The notes under the pieces: generated by a model
Databases searched by the model: none
What the model was told of the DNA's origin: nothing
The model's input: only the letters and a program-made list of their open reading frames with translations
Part shown: piece by piece, positions 4,607-31,841 of the stretch
Numbering within the stretch: position 1 is the first letter of the stretch
Layout of the letters: every line of letters starts with the position of its first letter
From: Alphaproteobacteria bacterium
Lineage (GTDB): Bacteria; Pseudomonadota; Alphaproteobacteria; GCA-2731375
Direction: 5' to 3'
Length of the DNA stretch: 64,000 bases
Assembly (NCBI GenBank): GCA_965225945.1
Contig: CBDDBZ010000031.1
Coordinates: forward strand, 128,001 to 192,000
Translations under genes and position numbers: made by a program

Positions 4607-5879
4607 GTGTCCGGGCGACGAACACGCCGAAGACCAAGACGCAAAGGCTCTCCAGACGGCTCTTGCGAAAGGCCTCACGCAGGGCGTTGATCGGGTTGTC
4701 TCGATGATTTCGATAAATTTATATGATTATGTCTCTATTTGTTTTCAGGAGGCGCGATTGATGGCGAGAGTGGCGGTGACGATCTCTTTGAGCGATGACG
4801 AGCGCGCCGAATTGGAGGCGCTGTCTCGTCGTCGCAAGACGTCGCAGGGGCTTGCGCGGCGGGCTCGGATCGTCTTGGCGGCGGCGGAAGGGTTGGAGAA
4901 CAAGGAGATCGCCGTTCGTCTCGAGGCGAGCGCGGACACCGTGGGCAAGTGGCGTCGCCGCTATGCGGCGGAGGGCCTCGACGGTCTGTACGACGAACCC
5001 CGCCCCGGCGCGCCGCGTCAAATCGGCGATGACGCCATCGCGGAAGCGGTCCGGCTGACGCTGGAAGAGACGCCGCCGGACGCGACCCATTGGAGCCTTC
5101 GCTCGATGGCGCGGGCGAGCGGCCACGCGCCCTCGACCATTCATCGCATCTGGCGGGCCTTCGGCTTGCAGCCGCATCGCTCGGAGACCTTCAAGCTGTC
5201 GAGCGATCCCTTCTTCGTGGAGAAGGTCCGCGACATCGTCGGTCTGTATTTGGCGCCGCCGGATCGTGCCCTGGTTCTCTGTGTCGACGAAAAGAGCCAG
5301 ATCCAGGCCTTGGACCGTTCCCAGCCCCTCTTGCCGATGCGCCCCGGGCAGGCGGAGCGGCGCAGCCACGACTACAAGCGCCACGGCACGACCTCTCTCT
5401 TCGCGGCCCTCGACATCGCCACGGGAGAGATCATCGGCAAATGTTTCCCGCGCCATCGGGCCCGAGAGTTCCGCAAATTCCTCGACCTCGTCGAGGCGAA
5501 CGTCCCTGCTGATCTCGACATCCACATCGTCATGGACAACTACGGGACCCACAAGACCAAGGCGATCCGCGACTGGTTCGCCAAACGGCCGCGCTGGCAG
5601 GCCCATTTCACACCCACCAGCGCCTCCTGGCTGAACCAGGTCGAGCGCTGGTTCGGGCTGCTGACCGACAAGCAGATCAGGCGCGGCGTCCATCGCTCCA
5701 CCAAGGAGCTGGAGCGCACCATCCTCGACTACATCGACACGACAAACCAGAACCCCAAACTCTTCAAATGGACCAAATCCGCCGATGACATCCTCGGCGC
5801 CATCCAGCGGTTCTGCCTCCGAACAATCGAAACCGCTGAACAGCAGGCGAAAATCATGCGAACTTCGGAATCGGGACAC
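4607..5879 (+). mobile_element. IS630-family element with TA duplication; left IR interrupted by a foreign fragment
   Basis: TA|GTGTCC...GGGACAC|TA. The right IR reverse complement (gtgtcccgattccgaagttcgcatgat) matches the left end only if about 4613-4705 is removed. Confidence 0.9.
4609..4711. repeat. Fragment copied from the 5' region of the IS4-family transposase (53486-53607)
   Basis: 4609-4673 is identical to 53486-53550. After an 18-bp gap, 4674-4711 matches 53569-53607 with a 1-bp deletion. Confidence 0.95.
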
Positions 5880-5882
5880 TAG
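4761..5882 (+). CDS. IS630-family transposase
   Basis: [40 protein letters not shown] motifs. AGGAGG RBS. Confidence 0.95.
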
Positions 5883-5886
5883 ATAG

Positions 5887-6989
5887 CGTCCCTATCCGGT
5901 TAAGGCAGGCAGCGCTCCCTGCGATTGTATACCGTCGACCAGTTCCCTTTAGGTGATGGTCGGTCGGGTCATGGCGCGGTGCAACACGAAATCGGCAAGG
6001 TCGAAGATGCGTTTGCGCCGGTTGAAGCGGTAGTTCCATTCCCGGACGTAGCGCGGCAAATGCTTGGCGCTCACCCCGTGGTAGGTTCCGTTGAGCCACG
6101 TCTTCACGTTGGAAAACAGGACATGGACGACCGGCATGAGCTGCTCGGCGTTCTTGCCTTGGCCTTGAACGACGGGCTGGTGGCGATAAGTATCGCCAAG
6201 CTTGGCGTAACTCTTGAAAGCGTCGCTGTCGAGGCGGCTTCCCGGCTTCACCGAGGCGCGCACGAAGTCGCCCAACTCACGGGCGGTGGCCTCGGGCAGG
6301 ATGGCGAGCCGCGCGGCGCCGGCGGCGAAGCCGCTCCCCTTGATGCCCTTGCCCGACCCGACCGGCCACTTCTTGACCGCCATCACCAACAGGCTCTTGT
6401 TCGGGTTGGAAAGCCCGCGCCCCCGGCTCTCCGGCTTGCCCCGCCCGCCGTAATAGCTCTCGTCGACCTCGACCAAGCCCTCCAGCGGGAACTCCGGGCG
6501 CTCCGTCAGGGCATGGCGCAGCTTGTGGGCCATCAGCCAGGCGGTGTCGTAGCGCAGGCTCAACTCTCGCGACAGAAACAGCGCCGAGACCCCGCGCTTG
6601 TCGCGCCCCATCCACCACGCCGCCAGGAACCATTTGCGCAACGGTGTGCGGGTGCGGTGGAAGACCGTGCCCGCGGTCACCGATTCCTGATGGCCGCAAC
6701 CGGCGCATTCGATGCTGCCCGGCGGTTGGCTGTTTCCAGACCCGCGGCCGCGTCTTCAATTGGTAGTTCCGCCTCTCGCCGCAACGCGCGCAGACGTAGC
6801 CTTGCGGCCAGCGCAGCCGAGCCAGCGCCTCGATGCAGTCCGCCTCCGATCCATGGCGTTCGAGGAACTCCAATATCCCGCTCATCGAATAGTCCTCCAA
6901 AAGCTCCAGCCGATGCGATCAGCCTACACCTCTATGGAGAACATATCAAGAACATTCGGAGCCCATCCTGCTTTAACCAGATAGGGACG
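5887..6989 (-). mobile_element. IS1595-family element (defective), 8-bp TSD CTAGATAG
   Basis: IRs cgtccctatccggttaaggcagg / cctgctttaaccagatagggacg. TSD at 5879-5886 and 6990-6997 overlaps the IS630 right end. Confidence 0.9.
5949..6885 (-). pseudogene. IS1595-family transposase pseudogene
   Basis: Zn ribbon (CARCG), VEVDESYYGG, SDAFKSY, YHGVSAKHLPRY. A 25-bp insertion at about 6713-6737 shifts the frame, and there is a premature TAA at 5949-5951. Confidence 0.88.
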
Positions 6990-7128
6990 CTAGATAGATA
7001 TTCGGCCCAGGTCTCCGCGAAACTGAATATACGCTGTTTGGATCGAGATTTCCCAATTCAGACGTCCCGGTGTCGAGGCCGGCCCCAGCCCGCCGCCAGG
7101 GCGGCTCATGGACCGGCGAAGTTGCTCG

Positions 7129-7300
7129 GGAGCCATGACCGAAAGTTGGCGATGGCCTGATCAGGCGGCGTTTTGGATTTTCCTGATTCCGTCCTCGAAC
7201 CTCACGCCTCGGACGACTTCGGCGAGCTGATTGGATCCATTGAGTCTGCGCCATTTCTCACGCGCTCGAGAGCAGCTTGAAGACCATGGCGAGCGCCGTC
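7129..7300 (-). pseudogene. IS256-family transposase 3' remnant with terminal sequence
   Basis: AMVFKLLSSA*EKWRRLNGSNQLAEVVRGVRFEDGIRKIQNAA* resembles IS256 C-termini. Confidence 0.75.
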
Positions 7301-7589
7301 TTCCGGCTGGTACTTCCGGCAGATCTTGTCGACGGCGTCGCGGATCGACTCCTGTTCGGGCGTGACAGCGAAATCCATCTACGGGCTTCCTCGAGCCAGG
7401 TCGGAAAAGGCAACCGGGCGGGGCCAATCTAGCCGATGTCGGGTGGGGGCGCGCAAGCTTCCGCTTCGCTGCGGGCGTCGGCGCGTCTTCCGGGAGGCCG
7501 GCCACCGCCCCGAGCCCATTCAGAGCCTCCCGTCCGGTCCGTCGAGTGCCGACGGCGTCCCCGCGATCACCGCCTCACCCGTCTCGAGC
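7301..7589. repeat. Copy 2 of ACAD 5' end/promoter duplication (orphan start MDFAVTPEQESIRDAVDKICRKYQPE)
   Basis: Aligns with 540-833. Confidence 0.9.
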
Positions 7590-7913
7590 GGCATACGCAA
7601 ATTCACGTTACTGGTGAGCCGGGGGGCGCCAGTGACGGCCTCGGAGAGGCGCGGTCGTCGTGCGCGGCGAGACGCCATAGACGATGGACGACACCCTCTG
7701 GGAGCGTCCCCTGGCCGCTCCGAGCGAGCGTGATCGCGTTACGGCCGCCTTCCGTAGGCTATCGAGTATGCTCTTCCAAGGGGTTTCGTGCATGCCAACG
7801 TAAAGGCTGCGAAGGAAGCTGATTGGAAGCGCCGGTTGGAGCTGCAGGGGATTTTGCTGTCACCTTGCGCTCGCTATGCTATGATGACGGATCATGGTGA
7901 GCCCTGGCGAACA

Positions 7914-8375
7914 ATGATTATCAACTGGTACTCGACGCATATCGACCTGGGCAATCTTTCGCAGCGCCTGAGGACTGCCTATGCGTTGTGGGTATCTGTA
8001 ATCGACCCAGGAAATTTACCAAGCCTAAAGCAGATCCAATCCTCGAGCTTCTATGAAGACTTATCGCCCTATATTGCGTTGACCGAGAATCAGGGAGACG
8101 CCGAACTCCCGAAATTGGTCCGTTTGACGGCTGGGTCGAAGGTCGTCGAGCTCTTTGGAGCAGACTTGGCAGCACGGCGGCTCGACGAAGTGTTGACGGA
8201 ATCCGGTCAATTATTGGCCGAAGAAATATTTGACGAACTGCGCAACCAACGCAAACCGGTACATTTCAGCGTCTCGGGCTCTCCTAATATTAGCAAAGAC
8301 GTGGAAGCGATCGTGATGCCGCTGCTGCACGATGATGCGGCTATGGAACTGGCCTTGTTCGTGTACGATGTTTGA
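7914..8375 (+). CDS. PAS-like (PAS_5/DUF1457-type) small protein
   Basis: LRTAYALW...LPSLKQI...LSPYIAL...AGSKVVELFGADL...EAIVMPL pattern typical of standalone alphaproteobacterial PAS proteins. Confidence 0.65.
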   Translation: MIINWYSTHIDLGNLSQRLRTAYALWVSVIDPGNLPSLKQIQSSSFYEDLSPYIALTENQGDAELPKLVRLTAGSKVVELFGADLAARRLDEVLTESGQLLAEEIFDELRNQRKPVHFSVSGSPNISKDVEAIVMPLLHDDAAMELALFVYDV

Positions 8376-8753
8376 AGCGAGGAACGCTACGATCCGGGAG
8401 GCGCGCCGATAATTATCGACAAACAGCCCGAAGCCTTGGCGATCAGCAAGGCGTACAAGATCTGACAGACTCGAAGCTCACGCTACGGTCATGCACGCGC
8501 CGAGTTTCGGGGCTAAATTCGCCGTCAGGGTGATAGGGTCAGATTGGTCATTTGTAGCCAATAGTTTCCGTTCAATACTTTTAATGAACTGCGCCGTTTC
8601 GACCGCTTGAGATCACGGTTCCTGCTGTGTGCGAGCTTCGATAGACTTGCGTCATGTCAGAACGGACACAGCGCAGACGGGCAGCCATTGTGGCCGCGGC
8701 GATGTCCCGCCCAATGTTGAAAAGTGCGAGATAGGCATCGTCTGATCGAGAGG

Positions 8754-10052
8754 CTACGCGGCCACCTCGATGTCTTCAATGACGGACTTTGCTCCGGCCT
8801 TTCTCACCGCCTCCCGCAGGGCGGCGTCAAGGACGGGGAGCTGGCGGTAGGCCTTGAGGCGGCGGAAGGTCTTTTGCGCCTCCAAGAGGCCGGCGGCGGT
8901 CCAACGCAGCGCCATCTCGGCGTTGCGCCAGCGCTTGACGTTCCGCTGCACCGTCCGGACGGTGCCGATCGCGTTCTCGATGGCGTTGGTGCAAGCCAGC
9001 GAGTGTCGAAGTTGCGGCGGGAGGCCGAGCCGGATCACGGTCAGGATCTCGTCCAGGCCCTCCAGGATCGAGCCCGAGACGCCGGGTGCGTCATGCTCCA
9101 GACGGCGGGCGAGGTTGCGCAAGAGCCGTTCGGCCTTGGCCGCGTCGTCCTGCTGCCAGGCCTGCCGCAAGACCTTCCTGACGCCGGCATGGAGGCTCTC
9201 GTCCAGCCGGTCCGTGATGTTGCGCCCCTTGTGCACCTGGCAGCGCTGGAGGGCCGCCGCCCGCCCGAAGGTCCGCCGGATCGCCTTCGAGAGCGCCTTG
9301 GCGCCGTCGACGATGTAGAGCCGAGGCCGTTCGGGATCGAGACCGCGCTCGATCAGGTTGTCGAGCATGGCTTGCACCGTGGCCGCGTTCTCCGTCGCGC
9401 CCTCGGCCAGGTCCAGCACGTGCTTCGCGCCGCCGGTGTCGATGCCGATCGCCGCCACCATCAGGTGATCGCCGACATGGAGCCCGTCGATCTGGAGCAC
9501 CACGAGATCGAGATCGTCGAGCGGGCTCGCCAGCCAGGCCTTCAGCTTGCTTCGCGTCAACGCCACGAAACGGCGCGAGACCGCCGACTTCGAGGTTGCG
9601 TCACCCGATGCCGCCGGCAGATCGCCGCCCGCATCGTCCGGCAGGCGCACCGCGCGGGCATACTTGCGGGTCGAGACGTTGATCACCATCAGATTCATCG
9701 CCCAGGCTTGCAAGAGTTCGGGTTCCGACAGCAGCTCCCAACTCGGCAGGCTCATCTCCCGACCCGCGAAGTCCCGCACCCGAGGGCGCTCGACCTTCAC
9801 TTTGCCGCCGTGGTAGGCGATCTCGCTCCGGGTCGTGCCCCATCGATGGCCCTTGCGCTCGCCCGAGCGGGCGTGGCGCGAACCGCACAAGGCTTCCGCG
9901 TCCGCCGACATCATCTCGTTCAAAGACTCGAGGCCCGCCAAAAGGCAGAAGCGATCGACGCTCATGCGCAGATCGTCGAAGGCCTCCGGCATCGATGGCA
10001 AGAGCCGACAGGATGGTTCCGAGGAACGGTCGTTGCGTGTAGTCTTGGTCAT
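8754..10052 (-). CDS. IS256-family transposase
   Basis: LQIDG, YIVDGAKAL, QRCQVHK, CTNAIEN. Differs from copy 2 by one residue (D/G). Confidence 0.95.
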   Translation of the reverse strand: MTKTTRNDRSSEPSCRLLPSMPEAFDDLRMSVDRFCLLAGLESLNEMMSADAEALCGSRHARSGERKGHRWGTTRSEIAYHGGKVKVERPRVRDFAGREMSLPSWELLSEPELLQAWAMNLMVINVSTRKYARAVRLPDDAGGDLPAASGDATSKSAVSRRFVALTRSKLKAWLASPLDDLDLVVLQIDGLHVGDHLMVAAIGIDTGGAKHVLDLAEGATENAATVQAMLDNLIERGLDPERPRLYIVDGAKALSKAIRRTFGRAAALQRCQVHKGRNITDRLDESLHAGVRKVLRQAWQQDDAAKAERLLRNLARRLEHDAPGVSGSILEGLDEILTVIRLGLPPQLRHSLACTNAIENAIGTVRTVQRNVKRWRNAEMALRWTAAGLLEAQKTFRRLKAYRQLPVLDAALREAVRKAGAKSVIEDIEVAA

Positions 10053-10075
10053 GGCGTCGTTCTCCTTGATGGAAT

Positions 10076-10831
10076 CTTGCCTATCCGGTTATCACCCACA
10101 CCCACTATATGTAGTGTGCACCCATTTTCCTGAGTAAAGCTTCGGTGCAGGTCGAAGCGGAGATATCTCCGGCGATGCCGAGCAGGGACTCGGACGGCAT
10201 TGTAGCGCCTTTTAGGCGACACTTTAGCGTGGTGGAAATCCTAATCATTGAGTCGGATTTGGCAAAACGCCACGTTGCATAAAGGACCGTCACTTCATTG
10301 AAATTTATCTGAAATCGGAGGTGAACGACACCGATGGAATATTCCAGGAAATCAGAGCTTCATTGAATTGTAGGATTCGAGTGCCGGATTATTCACAAAT
10401 AGCTCTGTGAACTGGTTTTCAAGTTCGCTCAATACGTCATATGAAGTAAACGGATTGAGGATCACGTTCTTGCGTGTCGCTTCGTCTTCGCTGCGACTCA
10501 AAACGCGCAGGAGACTAACAGGCGCGGACGGGTTCTTCGCAACGATTCGTGCCAGCGCGTCGCTTTCTTCGACTAGTGCCGTCAATCGCTCAGACGATGT
10601 CGTTTCATCAGCAGCTTCCCGTCTGGCCGTGGGTTTCTTCGTTTTTCCCTTGGTCGCCACCGTTCCGTCCCCCGATGTTAAGTACGTGACGTGAATTAAA
10701 CTCCGGTTCGGTTTTCAGAACAATCAAGAATTAGCCGGATCGCCTCCTCAATGCGCCTGCGCCGGCCCTTGCCTGCAGTCCAAGGAGACACACTACATAT
10801 AGTGGGTGTGGGTGATAACCGGATAGGCAAG
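10076..10831. mobile_element. Non-autonomous cassette (MITE/MIC) with 43-bp perfect IRs and 8-bp TSD GATGGAAT
   Basis: IRs at 10076-10118 and 10789-10831. TSD at 10068-10075 and 10832-10839. The empty site is visible in IS256 copy 2. Confidence 0.95.
10352..10660 (-). CDS. Small leucine-rich-variant (LRV/HEAT-like) repeat protein, passenger of the cassette
   Basis: ETTSSERLTAL...ARIVAKNPSAPVSLLRVLSRSEDEATRKNVILNPFT repeat pattern. GGGGG RBS-like run before GTG. Confidence 0.7.
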   Translation of the reverse strand: MATKGKTKKPTARREAADETTSSERLTALVEESDALARIVAKNPSAPVSLLRVLSRSEDEATRKNVILNPFTSYDVLSELENQFTELFVNNPALESYNSMKL

Positions 10832-10987
10832 GATGGAATCAGCACCCAGAGCCTAGCGGCTCCAGGCGGACGACGCCTACTTCAGCTTTTCAACAGAGCC
10901 CGGGACATCCCCGTGGCCGCAGACGTGGCCGGGTATCCTTGCGACCGCCAGCAAGCGCCGCCCGGTGCGTGACAAGAGGGGAACCCC

Positions 10988-11176
10988 GTGAAGGAAACCG
11001 CCGTGGCATTGAGCGCGGAAGAGCGGGACCATCTCTCCCGCCAACTCCATCTCGGCGACGGCCTGTTGAGCTGGCTGTCGCGCGATCTCGGCACGGTGGC
11101 GGTGATCCTACTGATCGTCATCGCAATCTGGGTGGTCAGCGTCTACGCGCACGTCTTGGGCCCGGCCGCCGGCTAG
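10988..11176 (+). CDS. Small single-pass membrane protein
   Basis: GAGGGG RBS, 62 aa, hydrophobic stretch VAVILLIVIAIWVVSV. Confidence 0.5.
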   Translation: MKETAVALSAEERDHLSRQLHLGDGLLSWLSRDLGTVAVILLIVIAIWVVSVYAHVLGPAAG

Positions 11177-11379
11177 TACGAACACCTCGGCCGGGTGGCG
11201 AGGAGTTTAGCCGACCGAAGAAGGTGGTTCTACCGAAGGGGCGTACGTCGCATGTGGGTCATCAATACTCTGTTGGTGCACAAAAAAATTACGGGGAGCC
11301 TCGAGTGTAGACCAGACACCGAGACTGCGATTCCGCAAGTCGACCCGCCGGGCGTTGGGGCCAAATCGAACCCCCGAGG

Positions 11380-11493
11380 CGCGCCGCGGCTCCGACAGAA
11401 GCCGCGGCAGTTGCGGGAAAACGCGACGAGTCGCTCGGCGTGGCAAGTCTCGAGGCGCCCACACTTCAGGAAGTCTTCGAATTTCCACCACAC
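11380..11493 (-). pseudogene. IS91/ISCR-family transposase Zn-binding remnant
   Basis: FEDFLKCGRLE..CHAERLVAFS..RGFC resembles the IS91-family motif, with an internal deletion. Confidence 0.7.
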
Positions 11494-11566
11494 TTAGAAG
11501 CAACAGTTTCCAATAAGATACCTACCTCATCAATTTATGGGCTCGTCTCGAGATTCCACGGTTGGC

Positions 11567-12475
11567 TCAGGTAAGTCCCAGCTTCGGTCGAACCCAGTCC
11601 GACATTTGCTGGACCGCCTGATCAGCCTCCGGCGCAGCACCCGCCATGAAGTGCCAAACATGCTGCATCTCGGGGAAAATATCCATTTTAACTTCGACGC
11701 CTGCTTCCCTCGCGATTTTCTCGAAACGGACAGCGTCGTCCAGCAAGGTTTCGTCGCGACTCACGGTGATGTATAGAGGTGGGAGGCCACTTAAATTGGC
11801 ATAAAGCGGGTTGGCGAGAGGATCACGCGACCAGCCGCCCGCGAGGAAAGTTTCGGCCATACCATCTACAACTGCCTTTTTTACGAGGCAGTCTTTTTCC
11901 TCATTGGTCTTCATCGAGTCCCCACTATTCTCCACATCGTACCAAGGACAAATTGGCATCGCGGCGGCGGGCAATGGGAGACCCTTGTCGCGTGCCGCAA
12001 GAATAATTGATGTGCAGAGGCTACCACCAGCAGAGTCTCCGGTGGTCGCGATGTTTTCCGGTTTGAACCCTTCGTTAAGCAGCCATTCGTAAACTTTGAC
12101 GCAATCGTTGATGGGACCAGGGTGCGGATTCTCGGGCGCAAGTCCGTAGTGGACACTGATAGCCCGGCAGCCAACCGCCTTCGCGATATGAGCGTACAAT
12201 TTACGATGGGAATAGATAGAGCCGGCTACGTAACCACCACCATGAGTACACAGCAATACGTGCTCGTCGCTGGCTCCCTTTGGATTGGCCCACATGCAGA
12301 GTACACCGTTACAGTCGGCTTCAATATAGTCAACTCCGCCGGGTTCACTGCCGAGGTCAGCCAAATGCTCTAACAGGGCTCGCACCTCTTCGATGGGCAT
12401 GTCCGGATTCTCGCCCAATGTTTTAAGGAAATGATTGTAGAGGTCCTTGATTGCGTTTGATTGTTTACTTGCCAC
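11567..12475 (-). CDS. HSL-family esterase/lactone hydrolase (CpnC-like by context)
   Basis: HGGGY, GDSAGG, EMQHVW. GTG start with AAGGGAG RBS. Lies downstream of a BVMO. Confidence 0.88.
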   Translation of the reverse strand: MASKQSNAIKDLYNHFLKTLGENPDMPIEEVRALLEHLADLGSEPGGVDYIEADCNGVLCMWANPKGASDEHVLLCTHGGGYVAGSIYSHRKLYAHIAKAVGCRAISVHYGLAPENPHPGPINDCVKVYEWLLNEGFKPENIATTGDSAGGSLCTSIILAARDKGLPLPAAAMPICPWYDVENSGDSMKTNEEKDCLVKKAVVDGMAETFLAGGWSRDPLANPLYANLSGLPPLYITVSRDETLLDDAVRFEKIAREAGVEVKMDIFPEMQHVWHFMAGAAPEADQAVQQMSDWVRPKLGLT

Positions 12476-12579
12476 TTTCTGATCTCCCTTGTTTCCGTCA
12501 CTTCGGTGGTAATTCGGTTTCATTGTCACCGAGCAACTATTTAGAAAAGGCGTCGCCGGGATACGGGCAAGATTGAGAA

Positions 12580-14470
<1,891 letters not shown>

Positions 14471-14499
14471 TTACGGATGACAACTTTGCTTTGTTGTTG

Positions 14500-14778
14500 A
14501 GATATCGCTTTACCCATTCAGCTCGGCGATAAACCCAGATCTGTCGGAAGAACTCTTTGAGCATGTAGGCGCGATTGATCTCGAGTTTGAGTCGTTCGCG
14601 CTCTCCGGCGCGACGCGCCCGGCCCTCGGTAAGGTTCAAGGGGTTCTTCCGCCAAATGAATCGCGTCTTGTACATCAGTGCCTTGTGCTCGAGTGCCTTG
14701 TGCTCGGGCCACTTCTCGCGGATCTCGTCACGGCGAACTCGCTCGACAGCTTCCACCAAGTGACGCGCGATGTGGGTC
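14500..14778 (-). pseudogene. ISL3-family transposase internal remnant
   Basis: HIARHLVEAVERVRRDE...KTRFIWRKNPLNLT...NRAYMLKEFFRQIW. Contains a 15-bp tandem duplication (EHKAL x2). Confidence 0.75.
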
Positions 14779-15094
14779 AGCCCCTCAAGGTCGCGTAGGG
14801 TAGTGTGCGCGAAAATGAAAATCAAGCCGAGATTCCCCAGATGACCACTCGCGGCCACGGGTAGCGCAGCAATAACCGCGGTTGACATCAAATCTGGTCC
14901 TGATTCGGCCGTCTGCATTGTGATCTTCCTTCCTCGTCGGGCCGATTTGGCGATCAAAAGCCCGGCCAGTGACCTTTTCGCACTCGGAGGGCGCGCTTCG
15001 ACCCGCGCCGCACACTCCTGTCCTATCGGGCGACCTGGATGCCACGGGATCGAGCGCCGTCATGGCGCTAGAGGGGCCGGTCGCGACCCATCAA

Positions 15095-21369: not shown

Positions 21370-21412
21370 GAGCGGCGGCGGCCGGACGCTGATGGCGTGA
21401 TGGAGGGACGCG

Positions 21413-21637: not shown

Positions 21638-21739
21638 TGAACGGTCGCAGTCGGTGTCGAGCGACAGATGGTGAAGACAGTGGTGTCCGAAAAAGGCAAG
21701 AGGCAACACGCCCAACCGCTTTTCATTGAAGAGCTCTCA

Positions 21740-21792
21740 GAATCGGCCAAGGTGAGAATCGAATCGGCCAAGGTGAGAATCGGCCAAGGTGA
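21740..21792. repeat. Tandem repeat GAATCGGCCAAGGTGA x3
   Basis: Three copies with 37 extra bp, causing a frameshift. Confidence 0.9.
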
Positions 21793-21874
21793 GTGCGCTC
21801 ACGCCGCTGGACCTGTCACGTACCAGCCCAGACATGATACAACATGACGAGGCGTGGCTGCAAAAGCTCATATA

Positions 21875-23060: not shown

Positions 23061-24123
23061 TATCGCTTTCCTCAAGTCCTGCCGGTCCATGAGATCGAGC
23101 CTGGTTTCGACAGTCTAGTTTCAGCTTGCATCGAACTGCCGACGCCCGCAGGCTACATCGATAATCTGTTTGTCACCAAAAGGGGCGATTTGGTGATCGC
23201 CGAATGTAAGCTATGGCGTAATCCAGAGGCACGTCGCGAGGTGGTGGCTCAGATCGTTGATTATGCGCACAGTCTATCTTCATGGACCTACAGTGATTTG
23301 GATAGTGCAATAGCTAAGGTGCTTACAGTCGACGATGCGCCTCGCGCTACAACGCTCTACGGTCTTGTTGAGGATGACAGCGAGCTAAGCGAACCAGACT
23401 TCGCTGATGCCGTATCTCGAAATCTGCGGCTTGGCCGAGTGCTGTTGCTGATTGTTGGTGATGGAGTACGTGAAGGGGTCGAAAGTCTAGCTGGCTATCT
23501 CCAGAAGCATGCGGGATTCCACTTCACGCTCGGCATTATCGAGATACCAGTCTACCTACTTCCGCAAGGTGGATACGTGATACAGCCGCGAGTCCTCGCG
23601 CGCACCATTAACATTGAAAGAGGAATAGTTACGATTGTCGACGGTCAACCAGTGGTTAAACCATCGGACCAAGGCTCTAATGACCGCGGATCTGGACGAC
23701 GCACATCTATTTCTCAGGAACGCATCTTGGAGGTGCTTACTGAAATTGATCCGAAACTACCTGAAATGTTGCAATCATTTCTCGACCGCGCGGCTGATCT
23801 TGGAATTTACCTCACCACTGCAACAAGGACACTAGTATTTCGGTGGCGTGGTCCAGACGATCGGGAGTTTGCCATTGGCGGAATAGATGACAATGGTGAC
23901 TTAATTACGTATAATGTTGGATGGCAAGCTAACAATATTGGTCATGTTGGCCTTGCACATCAATATCTCAATCGGTTGGCGCCTCTTGTCAACGGAACTA
24001 TTCGCAAGACACCTAAGCCAGAAAACTGGTATGTAACGATCAAAGATACCACGTATCCACCGGCGAGGGACATGCTGGCATGACAAGATGAGCTTGTGTA
24101 GCGTGAGGTCTGGAAATTTGGCT

Positions 24124-24159
24124 TCGCCCCGCGCCGGGGTATACCCCGGCGCGGGGCGA
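24124..24159. repeat. Perfect 36-bp palindrome in the IS256 left end
   Basis: TCGCCCCGCGCCGGGGTA|TACCCCGGCGCGGGGCGA. Confidence 0.95.
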
Positions 24160-24178
24160 TCCGTCATTTTGGTTATCC

Positions 24179-25390
24179 ATGAAAGCGTCCAAACAAACAT
24201 GGAGAACCAGTATGCGGAAAGACCAGGATAGCGCTGTCGAGGCTTTGGTGGAACAATTGATCGAAGGCGGTAGCGAGAACATGGCGCCGGTCTTCGCCGG
24301 CCTTTTCAATCTCGCCATGCGGATCGAGCGGGAGAGGTTCTTGGGCGCCGGCCACTATGAGCGCACGCCCGAGCGGCGGGGATACGCCAACGGCACCAGA
24401 CCCAAGAAGATCGACACCCCGGCCGGTACGGTGAGGCTCGAGGTTCCCAAGACCGCCGGTCATGAGGCGCCTTTTTACCCCCAAGCCCTGGAGCGCGGAC
24501 GGCGCTCCTGCCGCGCTGTCATGCTGGCCGTGGCGGAGATGTATATCAAAGGCGTCTCCACCCGTGACGCCGAGGCGGTGATGCGCGAGTTCGGCCTGGA
24601 GAGCCTGTCGTCGAGCCAGGTCAGCCGCGCCGCCAAGCTCTTGGATGGGGAGCTGGATGCCTGGCGCAACCGGCCGCTGGGCGAGATCCGCTACCTGCTC
24701 CTCGACGCGCGCTATGAGAAAGTCCGAGAGGGTGGCGTGGTGCGCGACGCCGCCGTGCTCTCGGTGATCGGCATCGGCCCCGACCAGCGCCGCCGGGTGC
24801 TCGGTGTTTCCTGTGCGCTCTCCGAGGCCGAAGTGCACTGGCGCGCCTTCCTGGAGACCCTGGTTGCCCGTGGCATGCGCGGTGTCGCCTATATCGTTTC
24901 CGATGATCATCCAGGCCTCGGCGCCGCGCGCAAGGCCGTCCTCGGCGGCGCCGTCTGGCAGCGCTGTCAGTACCATCTGGCTCAAAACGCCATCCATCAC
25001 GCCCCCAACCTCGCCATCCGAAAGGCCATCGGCAAGGAGCTGCGCCGGGTCTGGAACGCCGCCGACGGCAAGGCCGCCGAGGCCGAGCTGGGCCATCTGG
25101 TGGCGGCCTACCGCGACAGCGCCCCCAAGCTCGCCGATTGGCTGGAGACGGCGATCCCCGAGGGCCTCGCCGTCTTCGCCCTGCCCGAGCGCCACCAAAA
25201 GCGCATGCGAACCTCGAACCCCATGGAGCGATCCATCCAGCAGGAGATCAAGCGCCGCACCGTAAAGGTCAGGGTCTTTCCCAACGAGGCCTCGCTCGAA
25301 CGTCTGGTCACCGCCATCCTCGTCGAAATCGACGAGAAATGGGAAACCACCGAAAAACCCTACATCACTTGGAAAGCAGAGGATGACTGA
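24179..25390 (+). CDS. IS256-family transposase
   Basis: GVSTR, LLLDARYEKVR, VSDDHPGL, WQRCQYH, RTSNPMER. Confidence 0.95.
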   Translation: MKASKQTWRTSMRKDQDSAVEALVEQLIEGGSENMAPVFAGLFNLAMRIERERFLGAGHYERTPERRGYANGTRPKKIDTPAGTVRLEVPKTAGHEAPFYPQALERGRRSCRAVMLAVAEMYIKGVSTRDAEAVMREFGLESLSSSQVSRAAKLLDGELDAWRNRPLGEIRYLLLDARYEKVREGGVVRDAAVLSVIGIGPDQRRRVLGVSCALSEAEVHWRAFLETLVARGMRGVAYIVSDDHPGLGAARKAVLGGAVWQRCQYHLAQNAIHHAPNLAIRKAIGKELRRVWNAADGKAAEAELGHLVAAYRDSAPKLADWLETAIPEGLAVFALPERHQKRMRTSNPMERSIQQEIKRRTVKVRVFPNEASLERLVTAILVEIDEKWETTEKPYITWKAEDD

Positions 25391-25529
25391 TCAACGGCGT
25401 TCCGAATTTCCACACATCAGGTTGCTCAATCACAAGATGATTGGCTTGCCGCGATCGATGAATATACTCGGAAGCTTCAAGAGGCTATTGCCGAGTCCTA
25501 GACAAATTGTCCATTTTAACACTTCCACG

Positions 25530-25802
25530 TTACGTTCCGATTTCGGATCGGATCCTGTTGACGAAGGAATAGTGCAGGCCCGCCTCGTCGGCGATCCAGC
25601 GCATGGTGTCGCCTTGGTCGCGATAGGCCCGCGCCAACCCTTCCGCGCGATCGCGCTCGCGCGGGGGCGTCGAGAGTTTCGGGCGCGATCCGGCGCCGGT
25701 CGGCGGAGCTTCCGAAACCACCGTCCGCGCCGCCTCGCGGAGGCCGCCGCGGAACGCCTCGCCACCCACGACAGGCCAATGCAATATGCAAGACCTGACC
25801 CC
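25530..25802 (-). pseudogene. Probable REP-associated tyrosine transposase (RAYT-like) C-terminal HTH remnant
   Basis: ARAYRDQGDTMRWIADEAGLHYSFVNRI resembles the HTH tail of RAYT-type proteins. Adjacent CAAGACCTGACCCC motif. Confidence 0.5.
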
Positions 25803-25823
25803 TCAACTTCTTAGTTTGCCGAT

Positions 25824-25853
25824 CGATAAAGTTCAATGACCCCTTTTCCCGCT
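25824..25853. repeat. Single REP-like arm related to 40979-41009
   Basis: cgataaagttcaatgaccccttttcccgct vs cgataaagtagaatgaccccttttccccgct. Confidence 0.75.
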
Positions 25854-25878
25854 GGTTTCATAACCGACATCCAAGAGC

Positions 25879-26394
25879 TTATTCAAGCAATCTAATAGAT
25901 TTTATAATATTTCTGAAAAGTTGTTTCTGATTTTCATCAATAGGTGAAAATTGTATATCAATAATACCGCCATTCGGATGGTCAATCCAAGTGATCGCTC
26001 GAAGCTGTCCTTCTTTTAAGAAGCGGCTTGAATATCCGATATATGTGTATAAATTTTCGGATAACTCAATAGTCTCACAATCCAAATTTAATATTTTGAC
26101 CTTAGTTTAATCTTTACATGTCATGGTTAATGACGAGGCTTGTTCGGGGGAAATAAACCTAACAGTCAACCATGCATCACTACCTAATGATGATCGAAAT
26201 GTATATGTCATATTCTCCTGAGGGGGAGTTGCATGGGGAATAAGAAGACTCTTTGGATAATAGAAACTCACATGATAAACTTCGCTTTCAAAAATAACTA
26301 AATCTTGCTTATCCAGCGTTTGTCCCAAACACAAATTTACGGAACAAAGAGAAAAAACAGCAATCAGAAATGATATTACATTATAATTTTTCAT
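25879..26394 (-). pseudogene. AT-rich exported hypothetical protein with in-frame TAA
   Basis: Signal-peptide-like MKNYNVISFLIAVFSLCSVNLCLG. The two ORFs are in frame across the stop at 26107-26109. Far lower GC than the host. Confidence 0.6.
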
Positions 26395-26416
26395 TTTAAT
26401 CACGAACATTCTTAAT

Positions 26417-27441
26417 GGCTCAATTCGTGAATTGTATGCATTAGTGATAGAGTGCCTGGAACGTCAGGAGGTTGGGTTATGGACGGCAAGGGTTTCCAGG
26501 TGTGGCTTTCGGCGGCGCGCGGGCTGACGCGCGCGCAGCGGCGCGAGGCGCTCGCGGTGCTGTCGGGCCGGAGCGAGGGCGAGGCATCGAAGGCCGCGAT
26601 CGAGCTTGGTGTGGACGAGGCCCGGCGCTGTCCGCACTGCGCGAGCGAAGGGGCGGTTTCGCGCGGTATGGCGCGGGGTCTGCGGCGCTACCAGTGCAAG
26701 GGCTGCGGCAGGACCTTCAACGCGCTGAGCGGTACGCCGCTGTCGGGCTTGCACCACAAGGAACGCTGGCTGTCGTTCGGGGCGTCGCTGGCGAAGGGGG
26801 AGACGGTGAAGGCGTCGGCGGCGCGCTGCGACGTGGCGGTGAGCACGGCGTTCCGCTGGCGTCACCGGTTTCTGGCGGCGGCGCGGAGCGATTCGGAGGT
26901 GCTCAAGGGGATCGTGGAAGCGGACGAGACCTACGTCCTGGAGAGCCGGAAGGGCGCGCGCGGGCTGGGGCGCAAGGCACGGCGGCGGGGCGGCAAGGCG
27001 AAGAAGCGCGGCCTCTCGCGCGAGCAGGTACCGGTTCTCATGGCGGCGGACCGGAGCGGAACGACGGTCAGCGCGGTGCTGCCCAGGGTCGATGCGGCGG
27101 CGCTCACGGCTGCCCTCGACCCGGTGGTCGCGAAGGACGCCCTGCTGGTCTCCGACGGCGGCGCGAGCTACCCACCGTGCGCCGCCGCGCTCGGGGTGAG
27201 CCACGAAGCACTCAACCGCTCGATGGGGGAACGGGTTCGGGGCGATCTGCATGTGCAGACGGTGAACAGCCGCCACAGCCGGTTGAAGGACTTCCTGCGT
27301 CCCCGCCGCGGCATCGCCACCCGCTATCTGGACAACTACCTGAGCTGGTTCCACCTCGTCGGCCTCGCCCCCGGCGCCAATGACCGAGCCTGCCTCGCCG
27401 CCGCCGTAACAAGGTGACGCATACAATTCACGAATTGAGCC
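26417..27441 (+). mobile_element. IS1595-family element (intact), 23-bp perfect IRs, 8-bp TSD TTCTTAAT
   Basis: ggctcaattcgtgaattgtatgc / gcatacaattcacgaattgagcc. TSD at 26409-26416 and 27442-27449. Confidence 0.95.
26479..27417 (+). CDS. IS1595-family transposase
   Basis: CPHC..CKGC Zn ribbon, VEADETY, SDG, HVQTVN, GIATRYLDNYLSWF. Confidence 0.95.
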   Translation: MDGKGFQVWLSAARGLTRAQRREALAVLSGRSEGEASKAAIELGVDEARRCPHCASEGAVSRGMARGLRRYQCKGCGRTFNALSGTPLSGLHHKERWLSFGASLAKGETVKASAARCDVAVSTAFRWRHRFLAAARSDSEVLKGIVEADETYVLESRKGARGLGRKARRRGGKAKKRGLSREQVPVLMAADRSGTTVSAVLPRVDAAALTAALDPVVAKDALLVSDGGASYPPCAAALGVSHEALNRSMGERVRGDLHVQTVNSRHSRLKDFLRPRRGIATRYLDNYLSWFHLVGLAPGANDRACLAAAVTR

Positions 27442-27498
27442 TTCTTAATTGTCCCTTCTTGAGGTTCTAACCGGGATACCCCAGATGGCTCCTCCCAA

Positions 27499-28949
27499 GG
27501 GGATGTCCCGGGCTCTGTTGAAAAGCTGAAGTAGGCGTCGTCCGCCTGGAGCCGCTAGGCTCTGGGTGCTGATTCCATCAAGGAGAACGACGCCATGACC
27601 AAGACTACACGCAACGACCGTTCCTCGGAACCATCCTGTCGGCTCTTGCCATCGATGCCGGAGGCCTTCGACGATCTGCGCATGAGCGTCGATCGCTTCT
27701 GCCTTTTGGCGGGCCTCGAGTCTTTGAACGAGATGATGTCGGCGGACGCGGAAGCCTTGTGCGGTTCGCGCCACGCCCGCTCGGGCGAGCGCAAGGGCCA
27801 TCGATGGGGCACGACCCGGAGCGAGATCGCCTACCACGGCGGCAAAGTGAAGGTCGAGCGCCCTCGGGTGCGGGACTTCGCGGGTCGGGAGATGAGCCTG
27901 CCGAGTTGGGAGCTGCTGTCGGAACCCGAACTCTTGCAAGCCTGGGCGATGAATCTGATGGTGATCAACGTCTCGACCCGCAAGTATGCCCGCGCGGTGC
28001 GCCTGCCGGACGATGCGGGCGGCGATCTGCCGGCGGCATCGGGTGACGCAACCTCGAAGTCGGCGGTCTCGCGCCGTTTCGTGGCGTTGACGCGAAGCAA
28101 GCTGAAGGCCTGGCTGGCGAGCCCGCTCGACGATCTCGATCTCGTGGTGCTCCAGATCGACGGGCTCCATGTCGGCGATCACCTGATGGTGGCGGCGATC
28201 GGCATCGACACCGGCGGCGCGAAGCACGTGCTGGGCCTGGCCGAGGGCGCGACGGAGAACGCGGCCACGGTGCAAGCCATGCTCGACAACCTGATCGAGC
28301 GCGGTCTCGATCCCGAACGGCCTCGGCTCTACATCGTCGACGGCGCCAAGGCGCTCTCGAAGGCGATCCGGCGGACCTTCGGGCGGGCGGCGGCCCTCCA
28401 GCGCTGCCAGGTGCACAAGGGGCGCAACATCACGGACCGGCTGGACGAGAGCCTCCATGCCGGCGTCAGGAAGGTCTTGCGGCAGGCCTGGCAGCAGGAC
28501 GACGCGGCCAAGGCCGAACGGCTCTTGCGCAACCTCGCCCGCCGTCTGGAGCATGACGCACCCGGCGTCTCGGGCTCGATCCTGGAGGGCCTGGACGAGA
28601 TCCTGACCGTGATCCGGCTCGGCCTCCCGCCGCAACTTCGACACTCGCTGGCTTGCACCAACGCCATCGAGAACGCGATCGGCACCGTCCGGACGGTGCA
28701 GCGGAACGTCAAGCGCTGGCGCAACGCCGAGATGGCGCTGCGTTGGACCGCCGCCGGCCTCTTGGAGGCGCAAAAGACCTTCCGCCGCCTCAAGGCCTAC
28801 CGCCAGCTCCCCGTCCTTGACGCCGCCCTGCGGGAGGCGGTGAGAAAGGCCGGAGCAAAGTCCGTCATTGAAGACATCGAGGTGGCCGCGTAGCCTCTCG
28901 ATCAGACGATGCCTATCTCGCACTTTTCAACATTGGGCGGGACATCGCC
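27499..28949 (+). mobile_element. IS256-family element, copy 2 (uninterrupted), 8-bp TSD CCTCCCAA
   Basis: TSD at 27491-27498 and 28950-28957. Inverted relative to copy 1. Confidence 0.95.
27595..28893 (+). CDS. IS256-family transposase
   Basis: Same protein as 8754-10052 apart from one residue. Confidence 0.95.
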   Translation: MTKTTRNDRSSEPSCRLLPSMPEAFDDLRMSVDRFCLLAGLESLNEMMSADAEALCGSRHARSGERKGHRWGTTRSEIAYHGGKVKVERPRVRDFAGREMSLPSWELLSEPELLQAWAMNLMVINVSTRKYARAVRLPDDAGGDLPAASGDATSKSAVSRRFVALTRSKLKAWLASPLDDLDLVVLQIDGLHVGDHLMVAAIGIDTGGAKHVLGLAEGATENAATVQAMLDNLIERGLDPERPRLYIVDGAKALSKAIRRTFGRAAALQRCQVHKGRNITDRLDESLHAGVRKVLRQAWQQDDAAKAERLLRNLARRLEHDAPGVSGSILEGLDEILTVIRLGLPPQLRHSLACTNAIENAIGTVRTVQRNVKRWRNAEMALRWTAAGLLEAQKTFRRLKAYRQLPVLDAALREAVRKAGAKSVIEDIEVAA

Positions 28950-29018
28950 CCTCCCAATCGCCGACAATGGTAGCACAATCGGCATCCGAACGCGATTCCA
29001 ACCCCGAGCTGTCCGATA

Positions 29019-29127
29019 GCATTACGGTGACAGTGCACTTAATCTCAGGTCGTGGAACCGAGGTCAATTAAGTGCACTGTCACCGTAATGCCCACCGTAA
29101 TGCCAAGTGCACTGTCACCGTAATGCC
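29019..29127. repeat. REP/REPIN-like cluster (AAGTGCACTGTCACCGTAAT)
   Basis: 25-bp perfect IR at 29019-29043 / 29067-29091, a partial copy at 29093-29104 and a third copy at 29105-29127. Confidence 0.9.
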
Positions 29128-29426
29128 AGCCACGCCGCGTCGTCCGCGTCGCCCATGTGCTTCAGGCCCGAGTACTGGTGAATCGCCGCCGGGTTGGCCA
29201 AGTGAACCTCGAGGCCGGCGTCCATCAGACCGTCGACCAGCCAGTACCAGTTGTAGGTCGACTCCACCACTACCCCCGAAAGCGCCTCCTGGTACGGCGC
29301 CAGGGCAGCGACGATCAGCCCGAGCTCGTTACGCAGCCGCTTCTTGAAGACAATCTTGTCGGCCTCGTCGATCACCACCACGACGCTGTTGGTGGAGTGC
29401 AAATCAATCCCGCAGTAGTATCTCAT
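29128..29426 (-). pseudogene. IS110-family transposase, N-terminal fragment
   Basis: MRYYCGIDLHS...VVVESTYNWYW...KHMGDADDA (DEDD RuvC-like). Cut off at the REP cluster. Confidence 0.88.
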
Positions 29427-29590
29427 CTCGGTCTCCTCTTCCGGTTCTGGTTGAGCTCTCGCAAACTTCACCAGTGTACCGGTCGAGGAGACCGGCCTAG
29501 ATGATTATCAAGTCTTTCATTTTGTGAGTCGGACCCGATTTCCTTGGACACAGAATTGGCTTAATCGAAGTGTCCAAGGAGGACCGGAAC

Positions 29591-30001
29591 ATGACCGACA
29601 ATTTTGAGAACAAAGTTGCTGTTGATGGGCCTGTGGTAAACGAGGGCGAGCTTGGCTCGTCCACGTTTTCCCCGGGCCAGGTTTCGCCGGCAGGCCCGCT
29701 GGGACTTGGCCAGCGGTGGACGGTGACGCGCAAGCGTGAGGTTGCCCTGCGGCTTTTGCGTGGCGAGCCGGTGGAACTTTTGTCGCGGCAGTTGGGCGTG
29801 GAGATTTTCCGGCTCGAGCAGTGGCGTGAGAAGGCGATCGCCGGGATCGATGCCTCGCTCAAGGAACGCAAGGGCGATCCGGTAAAGGCGGAACTGGACA
29901 TCGCCATGAAGCGGATCGGGGAGTTGATCATGCAGGTGGAACTGCTGGAGGCCAAGACGGAGACGTCCGGCCCTTTGGGGCGGCGGAGGTCGCGGCGATG
30001 A
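29591..30001 (+). CDS. IS OrfA (HTH)
   Basis: RWTVTRKREVALRLLRGE HTH plus coiled coil. AAGGAGG RBS. ATGA overlap with OrfB. Confidence 0.88.
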   Translation: MTDNFENKVAVDGPVVNEGELGSSTFSPGQVSPAGPLGLGQRWTVTRKREVALRLLRGEPVELLSRQLGVEIFRLEQWREKAIAGIDASLKERKGDPVKAELDIAMKRIGELIMQVELLEAKTETSGPLGRRRSRR

Positions 30002-30909
30002 GTGCCGCCACCTCTCCCGGCACGGGTTTGGCCTACGGCCTTCAGCGGGTCTGTGCGGCCTGGGGTTTTGCCCGTTCCTCGTTCTACGCCATGAAATCCC
30101 GGCAGCAGGCCACCGCTGAGCGCCCACCAGCAAAGCGCCGGGGACCGAAGCCCTCGATCTCGGACGAGGCTCTGCTGGTGGCCATCGAGGCCGACCTGGA
30201 GGCATCCCCCTGGGAGGGCGAGGGACACCGCAAGGTCTGGGCTCGGCTTCGGGTCTGTCGTGGCATCCGTGTTTCCCGCAAGCGGGTGCTCCGGGTGATG
30301 CGCGAGAACAACCTGCTCTCGCCCCATCGCTGCCGCCGCCGTGGCGGAAATCCCCATGTCGGTGAGATCATCACCCATGCCCCCAACCTCATGTGGGGCA
30401 CGGACGGCGTTCGGGTGTTCACGGTGGACGACGGCTGGGGCTGGATATTCACCGCCATCGAGCATTGGAACGCCGAGTGCGTCGGCTGGCATGTGTGCAA
30501 GCGAGGCGACCGCTTCGCCGCCCTTCAGCCGATCTCCATGGGGCTTGCGAGGCTGTATGCCTCGACCTCCGCCGGTGCGGCGCGGGGGCTGGCCTTGCGG
30601 ATGGATCACGGCTCCCAGTATCTGTCGGACCACTTCACCAACCAGATCAAGTTCTGGGGCATCCAGCCGTCCTACGCCTTCGTCGAACAGCCCCAGACCA
30701 ACGGCGTCGCCGAGAGGTTCAATCGCACGCTCAAGGAACAGATCATCCATGGCCGCATCTACCGCAACATCGCGGAGCTGCGGAACGCCGTCCGCGGGTT
30801 CGTCGAACAGTACAATGCCCAGTGGATCGTGGAGAAGAACGGCTACCTGAGCCCCGCTCAAGCTCGTCAGGCGTGGCACACCGCGATGTCACTCAGGCCC
30901 GCCGCATGA
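29998..30909 (+). CDS. IS OrfB (rve integrase core)
   Basis: MWGTD, MDHGSQY, NGVAERFNRTLKE. Confidence 0.92.
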   Translation: MSAATSPGTGLAYGLQRVCAAWGFARSSFYAMKSRQQATAERPPAKRRGPKPSISDEALLVAIEADLEASPWEGEGHRKVWARLRVCRGIRVSRKRVLRVMRENNLLSPHRCRRRGGNPHVGEIITHAPNLMWGTDGVRVFTVDDGWGWIFTAIEHWNAECVGWHVCKRGDRFAALQPISMGLARLYASTSAGAARGLALRMDHGSQYLSDHFTNQIKFWGIQPSYAFVEQPQTNGVAERFNRTLKEQIIHGRIYRNIAELRNAVRGFVEQYNAQWIVEKNGYLSPAQARQAWHTAMSLRPAA

Positions 30910-31043
30910 GACAAACTTGTGTCCAAGGAACCGGGTGCGATACAAAGTCTTGCATTTTGCATAGCGGTCAAACGGCACCCATCTCCGCTGACCCATAGTG
31001 CGCGCATCTCGTGCGCGAGAGAATCGATCATTCATTAATAGTA

Positions 31044-31129
31044 CTGTTGGTGATGGCGGTCGAGAAGTGGCCGGTCGGGTCGGGCAAGGGCATCAAGGGG
31101 AGCGGCTTCGCCGCCGGCGCCGCGCGGCT
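31044..31129 (+). repeat. 86-bp internal fragment of an IS1595 transposase (reverse complement of 6307-6392)
   Basis: 85/86 identity, no IS ends. Confidence 0.95.
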
Positions 31130-31280
31130 GCATCCTGCAATACGGTATATTGTATATAAATTAGCAAAATCGGAGAATTTGCAGAACGAAATCCCACCGG
31201 CCGCACGCGGCTCAAGAAAGTTGCTCAATGATTTCAATGCTTTGATCAATGCGTTCATATTCTGAATTCAAGATGTACTG

Positions 31281-31489
31281 CTGGCCGTGGGTTTCTTCGT
31301 TTTTCCCTTGGTCGCCACCGTTCCGTCCCCCGATGTTAAGTACGTGACGTGAATTAAACTCCGGTTCGGTTTTCAGAACAATCAAGAATTAGCCGGATCG
31401 CCTCCTCAATGCGCCTGCGCCGGCCCTTGCCTGCAGTCCAAGGAGACACACTACATATAGTGGGTGTGGGTGATAACCGGATAGGCAAG
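31281..31489. mobile_element. Right-end 209 bp of the cassette (copy of 10623-10831) between 47-bp direct repeats
   Basis: Identical to 10623-10831. Host sequence 31239-31285 is repeated at 31489-31535. Confidence 0.93.
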
Positions 31490-31841
31490 CTTTGATCAAT
31501 GCGTTCATATTCTGAATTCAAGATGTACTGCTGGCGTATCGTCGTTTTGGCCCGCGAAGGGCCCGGATCGGCGTCACCTTGTGATGTCGCGGGGCTCGAA
31601 TGGCGCGCCGGTTCGCCGAAATCCGGGCTGAATCGGGCGATCGTCCATCGGGACGGCGAGGTGATGCCCGCGCGCCATGCCCCGGGCGCGAGGCCCATGC
31701 GCCAGTCGCCAAGTGACGCAAATCTAGCAAATCGGTGACGCGGAATTGGAAGATTTGCCGCGCGGCAGCACTAGACTCGTGGTCGCGGCGACGTGAGATG
31801 ACGAGGTTTGGGATGTATTCCAGGGACGGGAGGACCAAGCC

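Follow-up and report, generated by a model that had tools for sequence, protein, structure and literature searches.

How does a piece of a transposable element come to lie in a gene, an intergenic repeat or another element when one or both of its ends are missing? A 64,000-nt stretch of an alphaproteobacterial genome (G000:C31:128001-192000, hereafter the window) raises this question at five sites, where fragments of insertion sequences (IS), of an IS91-like element or of a miniature inverted-repeat transposable element (MITE) interrupt other sequences as patches (a) to (e) (Table 1). Templated insertions joined by microhomology are a textbook mark of error-prone eukaryotic break repair, familiar from animals and plants; to our knowledge, the bacterial evidence for such insertions is mostly biochemical or comes from single events. 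Here we describe about 35 events in a single lineage, and we favour, at a probability of about 0.58, the view that patches (a) to (e) and their kin are real, recent scars of microhomology-primed template switching during break repair or replication. Our literature searches found no account of recurrent IS-templated patches in any bacterial genome, and what is new here is the recurrence together with the bias to mobile-element donors.

The genome (6.27 Mb, 39 contigs, 66% GC) is a metagenome-type assembly with an estimated completeness of 96.55% and an estimated contamination of 5.6%. Its closest protein matches are uncultured alphaproteobacterial metagenome-assembled genomes at no more than 70% identity, and the public runs with common sequence are chiefly sponge and marine metagenomes; the host bacterium is a sponge-associated, transposon-rich organism.

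Results

Short copies of mobile elements at otherwise intact sites

Patches (a) and (e) lie inside IS copies, so that other copies of the same elements provide the empty sites. The 103 nt of (a) are located 9 nt inside the left end of an IS630-family copy, and in 23 of 23 other IS630 copies this end is uninterrupted, with CTAGTGTCC(T/C)GA followed directly by TCGATAAATT. Positions 4609-4673 are identical to 53486-53550 of an IS4-like element, after which the match continues to 4711 past an 18-nt skip and a 1-nt loss; the first 65 nt have 53 other exact donors in the genome. Donor and target overlap by GTCC at the left junction and by TC or TGAT at the right one, and the IS630 copy has lost three bases (TGA). 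Patch (e) is missing from 17 of 17 other copies of ISA, its IS1595-family host. An earlier inspection of the window's letters alone (the sequence-only reading) had described it as a 25-nt insert without a donor in the window; outside the window, a 29-nt exact match is found in 20 copies of an IS91-like element. This element, exemplified by G000:C34:78604-82250, is about 3.6 kb long, has about 20 copies and carries a tyrosine recombinase gene with an IS91-type (Y2) transposase gene after it; group II intron reverse transcriptase (RT) genes adjoin some of the copies.

Patch (b) breaks the frame of a Baeyer-Villiger monooxygenase-like gene. The 19-mer at 13164-13182 equals 26611-26629 in the IS1595-family element ISE and has 54 other copies in the genome, against 0.0006 expected by chance, which rules out a chance match. 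The best match among DNA relatives is just 65-67% identical, and the site was therefore compared at the protein level: two protein homologues read straight across it, leaving 16 nt (13165-13180) as extra, and because these homologues continue uninterrupted we read (b) as a 16-nt insert. Three other studies have contigs across the stretch (about 98-99.5% identity), and as far as gap counts go (the position of the gap is not among the rows listed) two of these records carry exactly 16 gap letters and the third carries 34, which fits 16 plus an 18-letter difference elsewhere.

Patches (c) and (d) share one copy of an intergenic repeat, X, which lies upstream of a BKACE-like gene and has six paralogues in the genome (on contigs C20, C4, C39, C23, C27 and C32); the empty repeat matched no Rfam family at E <= 1. 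Positions 31044-31129, covering most of (c), are identical to 16 ISA copies, the overlaps are CTG and CTGC, one target A is lost, and the site is empty in six of six X paralogues. For (d), 31281-31489 equals 10623-10831, the end of a full MITE, and the site is empty in the four of four X paralogues that are informative. The right junction of (d) falls at the 8 nt CTTTGATC, exactly where the C4 paralogue also has a MITE end. The C32 copy of X carries a different 43-nt ISA piece, with a full ISA about 650 bp away.

A further comparison dates (c) and (d). C20:1-5969 is colinear with window positions 33048-27499 at 99.7-100% identity and has one extra MITE and neither patch; since this near-identical duplicate lacks both, (c) and (d) are very recent, whether it is a paralogue or a strain variant. 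The 5.5-kb duplicate begins at a contig end and loses synteny at an IS256-family element; co-assembly of a strain variant may explain it, in line with the contamination estimate. Repeat X itself is a hot spot, with (c), a 19-bp tandem duplication (C4 copy) and the ISA patch of the C32 copy all within about 45 bp of its AT-rich part, and with full ISA and MITE insertions further along the repeat.

Table 1. Positions in the window of the five patches, their host sequences and their donor families
Feature	Position	Strand	Description and basis
IS630-family copy (DDE_3 transposase)	4604..5884	+	left terminal repeat split by (a); Pfam, 24-copy end alignment
Patch (a)	4609..4711		IS4-like internal stretch; matches 53486-53607 minus 18-nt skip and 1 nt
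ISA, IS1595-family copy	5886..6992	-	donor family of (c), host of (e); Pfam, alignment
Patch (e)	6713..6737		25 nt from integrase gene of IS91-like element; overlaps GA, AG
Full MITE	10076..10831	+	donor family of (d); 756 bp, ~65 full copies, 8-bp duplication GATGGAAT
Baeyer-Villiger monooxygenase-like gene	12580..14089	-	interrupted by (b); protein homologues
Patch (b)	13165..13180		16 nt from ISE; 19-nt match 13164-13182; overlaps GT, T
ISE, IS1595 family	26412..27441	+	donor family of (b); Pfam, ~52 full copies
Repeat X copy	30947..31625		hosts (c) and (d); intergenic, AT-rich; ~340 bp when empty; 7 genome copies
Patch (c)	31047..31134		internal ISA piece; 86 nt exact, final 9 nt imprecise
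Left copy of the 47-bp target duplication of (d)	31239..31285		last 5 nt (CTGGC) overlap MITE piece
Insert (d)	31286..31488	+	final 203-209 nt of MITE, reaching true terminus; comparison with MITE and X
Right copy of the 47-bp target duplication of (d)	31489..31535		starts with CTTTGATC
IS4-like element (DDE_Tnp_1)	52463..53685	-	donor family of (a); Pfam, ~48 full copies genome-wide

The five insertions are thus present in the assembled sequence as described, with empty sites in paralogues for (a), (c), (d) and (e) and in homologues and foreign contigs for (b). They are copies, since the donors remain intact; patch and donor are 100% identical, and the junctions overlap by 1-5 nt, where the sequence-only reading had given about 1-6 bp. 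Normal DDE transposition would have left both element ends and, for the MITE and ISE, a fixed 8-bp duplication. Patches (a), (b), (c) and (e) are internal pieces with no ends and no duplication, and for these four the description of inserts without paired ends or target-site duplications stands; it fails for (d), which has one true MITE terminus and a 47-bp duplication.

One way to arrive at such pieces would be decay, by which complete IS insertions were later reduced by two deletions each. The genome does hold old, deletion-riddled copies, for example the colinear ISF pieces at C37:3925-4285. At (a), (b), (c) and (e), however, both flanks agree with the empty site to within 0-3 nt, the pieces are internal and target duplications are absent; two deletions falling exactly at both insertion boundaries, four times over, would be very unlikely. 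Intact flanks and internal pieces rule out two-sided decay of full IS copies for these four patches, and we consider decay a very improbable account of the set.

Recurrence, microhomology and donor bias

Each of the 11 junction 32-mers from the window occurs once in the genome, and three screens found further patches outside the window. A search with an IS library returned about two dozen orphan internal pieces, 27-100 nt long and 96-100% identical. It also brought up composite events within IS copies: in one, 36 nt of MITE fill a 147-nt deletion, and another is a 33-nt patch stitched from MITE pieces. Multi-hop copying is represented by the 18-nt skip of (a), by the filled 147-nt deletion and by an IS630 copy with a composite MITE patch. 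The second screen was blind to donors, compared all sequences against all, and retained private insertions of at least 10 nt in repeat copies with at least two to three empty paralogues. Its 31 rows contained 9 distinct tandem duplications, 1 family polymorphism, 11 ectopic templated patches and 3 donorless inserts, so that exact donors were found for 11 of the 14 non-tandem inserts. The third, a 20-mer screen, picked out 60 isolated snippets (24-150 nt) with their other copies inside long repeats; under strict conditions (unique DNA for at least 400 nt to either side) 12 remained, of which 8 are internal pieces. Candidate k-mer 'patches' lying 80-320 nt apart at C34:405312-408375 and three similar loci proved to be conserved islands of a diverged IS relative and were dropped before the count of 12 was made. 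The recurrence that the sequence-only reading had seen inside the window therefore extends to the genome in all three screens.

Other genomes offered little comparison. In 400 kb of the same-genus genome G002, with about 24 IS copies (6% repeats), no private insertion of at least 8 nt was found where the rate of the present genome would lead one to expect about 0.5, a sample without statistical power; in G001 these IS families are not present.

The overlap at the junctions was measured for each event as the length of the donor match minus the length of the insert. Over 11 events its mean is 4.36 nt against 0.76 nt expected, a value that none of 200,000 simulations reached. The donors are biased as well, as the sequence-only reading would predict: repeats hold 9 of 11 donors but account for 20.3% of the genome (P = 2e-5; repeats being counted from a length of 250 bp and an identity of 94% upwards, with 15.3% of the genome in families of at least five copies), and they hold 7 of 9 when two clear cis cases are left out (P = 3e-4). 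Both donors in unique sequence are in cis, 1,012 and 1,575 bp away from their patches, and for three repeat donors a copy lies 126, 240 and about 1,100 bp away; the orientation is direct in four of four events checked. All donors of unambiguous position are thus in cis, within 1.6 kb and in direct orientation, and for this reason template switching fits at least as well as the capture of free IS DNA. The proposal that breaks are patched from IS-derived DNA is accordingly borne out in its donor bias, but not in the capture of free IS DNA that it envisaged, since cis direct donors fit template switching equally or better.

These data also bear on an artefact of assembly or polishing, in which consensus building or local reassembly in an IS-polymorphic population would have pasted repeat pieces into unique sequence. 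The patches are 100% identical to many donors, we identified no run with filled junctions, and a metagenome-type assembly of 39 contigs with 5.6% estimated contamination is a plausible setting for such errors. An artefact would nevertheless have to yield internal pieces of 16-103 nt with overlaps of 1-5 nt, skips and lost bases, to draw some of its donors from unique DNA about 1 kb off, and to create target duplications that reach about 100 bp with extra fillers (see below). The assembler, moreover, retained the near-identical C20 duplicate without (c) and (d) as a separate sequence. Some tandem-duplication variants, finally, are common to two IS copies at different loci and must therefore have been inherited and then transposed, a pattern that an artefact would likewise have to produce. 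We regard an artefact as unlikely.

Truncated copies with one true end

Patch (d) belongs to a second class, of six truncated copies in which one element end is exactly preserved and the flanking target duplications are far above the normal 8 bp: 24, 47 and about 58 bp for MITE pieces, 97 and about 100 bp for ISE pieces, and 11 bp plus a 33-nt filler for an IS4 piece. In four of the six, the duplicate beside the truncated side has an extra small insert, which in one ISE case lies exactly 9 nt in, roughly at the expected position of the lost element end. Among truncated MITEs, the right end is kept in five and the left end in one. Because the points of truncation in the MITE (positions 375, 419, 517, 547 and 656) all differ, cryptic internal transposase ends were ruled out.

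For this class alone, aberrant transposase chemistry could be considered, namely strand transfer of a single end, copying inward from the 3' end of the target and closure by microhomology. The precise terminus kept in six cases, the prevalence of the right end among truncated MITEs and the use by (d) of the exact 8-nt target of the MITE end in the C4 paralogue would all follow from it. It cannot account for (a), (b), (c) and (e), which hold no element end, and it sits badly with filler of 8-20 nt right at the terminus in two cases and with duplication lengths that vary about ten-fold; we consider it a live, though rather unlikely, alternative.

Repair genes and reverse transcriptases

The sequence-only reading had named Ku/LigD end joining as a possible route and proposed to look for a loss of recA or mutS. 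Neither is supported in this genome. Ku (PF02735) had no match at 96.55% completeness, although the control search matched Bacillus subtilis, and the LigD primase-polymerase domain (PF21686) had none either; with both not found at 96.6% completeness, capture by classical non-homologous end joining (NHEJ) is unlikely, and classical NHEJ is not supported. A model for Prim-Pol (PF09250) also had no match in the genome, although this model may not cover the archaeo-eukaryotic primase (AEP) family of the IS-excision enhancer (IEE) discussed below. RecA and MutS are both present, as are PolA and DinB. The family-A polymerase model (PF00476) has a single match in the genome, a 933-aa open frame of Pol I size. 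As regards imuABC/dnaE2 and RTs, a second DnaE adjoins an ImuB-like gene, and RVT_1 has 36 matches in the genome, with RVT_1 and GIIM (group II intron maturase) together in three of three open reading frame (ORF) classes tested. Outside the window, at C38:556555-562653 and C31:260945-265406, RT ORFs of 539 aa follow one another three to four in a row at an exact spacing of 1,881 bp, which suggests tandem arrays of a group II intron-like unit.

This repertoire invites the idea of RNA-templated repair, in which the templates that group II intron RTs copy into breaks would be abundant transposase or element transcripts, or cDNA, with joining by microhomology-mediated end joining (MMEJ). The number of RTs of this type, the missing Ku, LigD polymerase and Prim-Pol matches and the strong donor bias to mobile elements are as this idea would have it, and group II intron and G2L4 RTs perform MMEJ in vitro, according to the available part of one report (bioRxiv 10.1101/2022.03.14.484287). 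DNA templates, on the other hand, fit the two unique cis donors about 1-1.6 kb away and the frequent tandem duplications; the truncated copies stop exactly at the terminus of the element DNA, where a transcript has no reason to end; and the sequences bear no mark of an RNA origin, neither poly(A) nor a splice mark. We judge RNA templating improbable, and the same low standing applies to the broader proposal that group II intron RTs are the end-joining polymerase of this bacterium, whose breaks, many of them from about 1 Mb of active transposons, would be sealed by RT microhomology priming on element transcripts or excised DNA. Were this proposal true, IS-templated footprints and LINE-like truncated copies would be its products, a bacterial counterpart of the templated insertions of DNA polymerase theta (Pol theta) and LINE-1 and a steady source of pseudogenes.

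Other repeats in the window and genome

Mobile elements in the window comprise one of the IS630 family (DDE_3), two of the IS1595 family (ISA and ISE), two of the IS256/Mutator family (ISB and ISD), an IS4-like element, two unclassified IS (ISC and ISF) and the 756-bp MITE. The full MITE of Table 1 sits nested inside an IS256-family copy. It contains a 102-aa open frame at 10352-10660 (minus strand) with a weak match to LRV_2 (Leucine Rich Repeat Variant), and the MITE may not be purely non-coding. A 300-bp local duplication (531-833 and 7293-7589, 83-94% identity) flanks the IS-rich stretch that holds (a) and (e). A tandem array of a 21-bp unit (about 2.8 repeats) occupies 21740-21797, immediately upstream of ISC, and a repeat of about 100 nt at 40901-41011 has about 13 copies elsewhere in the genome at 87-97% identity and may represent a small intergenic repeat family. 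Elsewhere in the genome, C39:237984-240541 is a dense 2.6-kb mosaic that runs from MITE through 54 nt of an ISA end, a MITE end, ISE 1-199, 38 nt of MITE and ISE 347-847 to a full ISA.

Discussion

Microhomology-primed template switching would account for the patches in three steps. A 3' DNA end left free by a break or by fork stalling would anneal to other DNA through 1-5 nt; it would be extended by 11 to about 250 nt, at times hopping again; and it would then re-anneal to its own locus through another short overlap. The same process could give three products, namely short tandem duplications, cis patches from 0.1-1.6 kb away and patches from multi-copy mobile elements, and the preference for the latter may stem from a greater accessibility of excised or replicating element DNA. 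The copies with one true end, (d) included, may have begun as full insertions whose other end broke; the broken end would have primed on the second copy of the target site, copied part of the flank and fallen back into the element, so that the product would amount to an aborted precise excision.

Several points weigh against this reading. The nearest present-day donors of (a) to (e) are 13-129 kb off, so that template switching on a purely local scale would require a further assumption. The position of the sentinel sites in IS-dense DNA inflates the repeat share among cis donors. The 100% identity of patch and donor is equally expected from an assembly or polishing chimera, and all findings come from one assembly; among the public runs listed, none exceeds a share of 0.67 of the words sampled from 30940-31660. 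The contig rows listed, out of 7,229 from four public runs, contain only empty forms of (c) and (d), which may be derived from paralogues; these contigs differ from the window by about 0.5-4% in unique stretches and so come from relatives, not from the source. Finally, break repair and template switching during replication would leave scars that are inseparable in sequence alone.

The scars have known counterparts. Pol theta end joining, or synthesis-dependent MMEJ, likewise yields overlaps at both junctions, near or distant donors, multi-step skips and deletions, but the present genome has just one family-A polymerase, of Pol I size, and no Pol theta-like enzyme, its donors are mostly mobile elements, and its cis donors are direct rather than snap-back. 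Fork stalling and template switching and microhomology-mediated break-induced replication (FoSTeS/MMBIR) resemble our events in microhomology, tandem duplications, direct cis donors within about 1.6 kb, several hops and flanking target duplications; the events differ in their small size (11-250 nt) and in having many multi-copy donors tens of kb away. The nearby donors expected of these mechanisms are found at 126, 240, 1,012 and 1,575 bp and not for (a) to (e). LINE-1 target-primed insertion is reminiscent of the class of (d), in which one end is intact and the other truncated, the duplications are long and variable, and the truncated junction shows microhomology or filler; here, however, poly(A) is absent, the end that stays intact coincides with the DNA terminus of a DDE-type element, and nothing in the sequence points to an RNA intermediate.

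The bacterial end-joining systems that we compared match the scars in part. Capture of fragments by Ku/LigD NHEJ shows that breaks can take up foreign or genomic pieces, but neither Ku nor the LigD polymerase domain was found here, and the donors were copied, not moved. Alternative end joining in E. coli reportedly produces chiefly deletions with very little synthesis, whereas synthesis from a second template is the hallmark of the patches. This E. coli pathway depends on RecBCD, is independent of Ku and uses microhomology (Chayot et al., 2010, as given in the available part of PMC6054270). IEE is an AEP polymerase-helicase with MMEJ activity that ties IS excision to joining through overlaps of at least 4 nt, its AEP belonging to a separate 'Z1568-like' family (PMC9943667, available part). 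The class with one true end resembles an aborted excision of this kind; PF09250 had no match in the genome, though the AEP family of IEE may escape that model. Group II intron and G2L4 RTs are described as capable of MMEJ, snap-back synthesis and template switching in vitro and as an aid to repair in vivo (bioRxiv 10.1101/2022.03.14.484287, available part), and the genome is rich in such RTs and has no Ku match; the known activities are nevertheless in vitro ones plus a repair phenotype, the available part of that source contains no genomic scars of templated insertion, and the RTs here are probably intron-encoded, so that any link to the patches is hypothetical. Because the defining enzymes of Pol theta joining and of classical NHEJ were not found, the genome resembles such systems in how it works but is not one of their members.

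If the junctions hold in raw reads, this genome would provide about 35 natural events with empty-site controls from its own repeat copies. It would then become testable by what means bacteria without NHEJ mend breaks for which they have no intact copy, whether active transposons provide an end-joining pathway with breaks as well as templates, and whether group II intron RTs act in break closure in vivo. When symbiont genomes are annotated, an orphan IS snippet or a truncated IS copy should not automatically be taken for the relic of a whole insertion, and such pieces can inactivate genes, as the monooxygenase gene broken by (b) illustrates.

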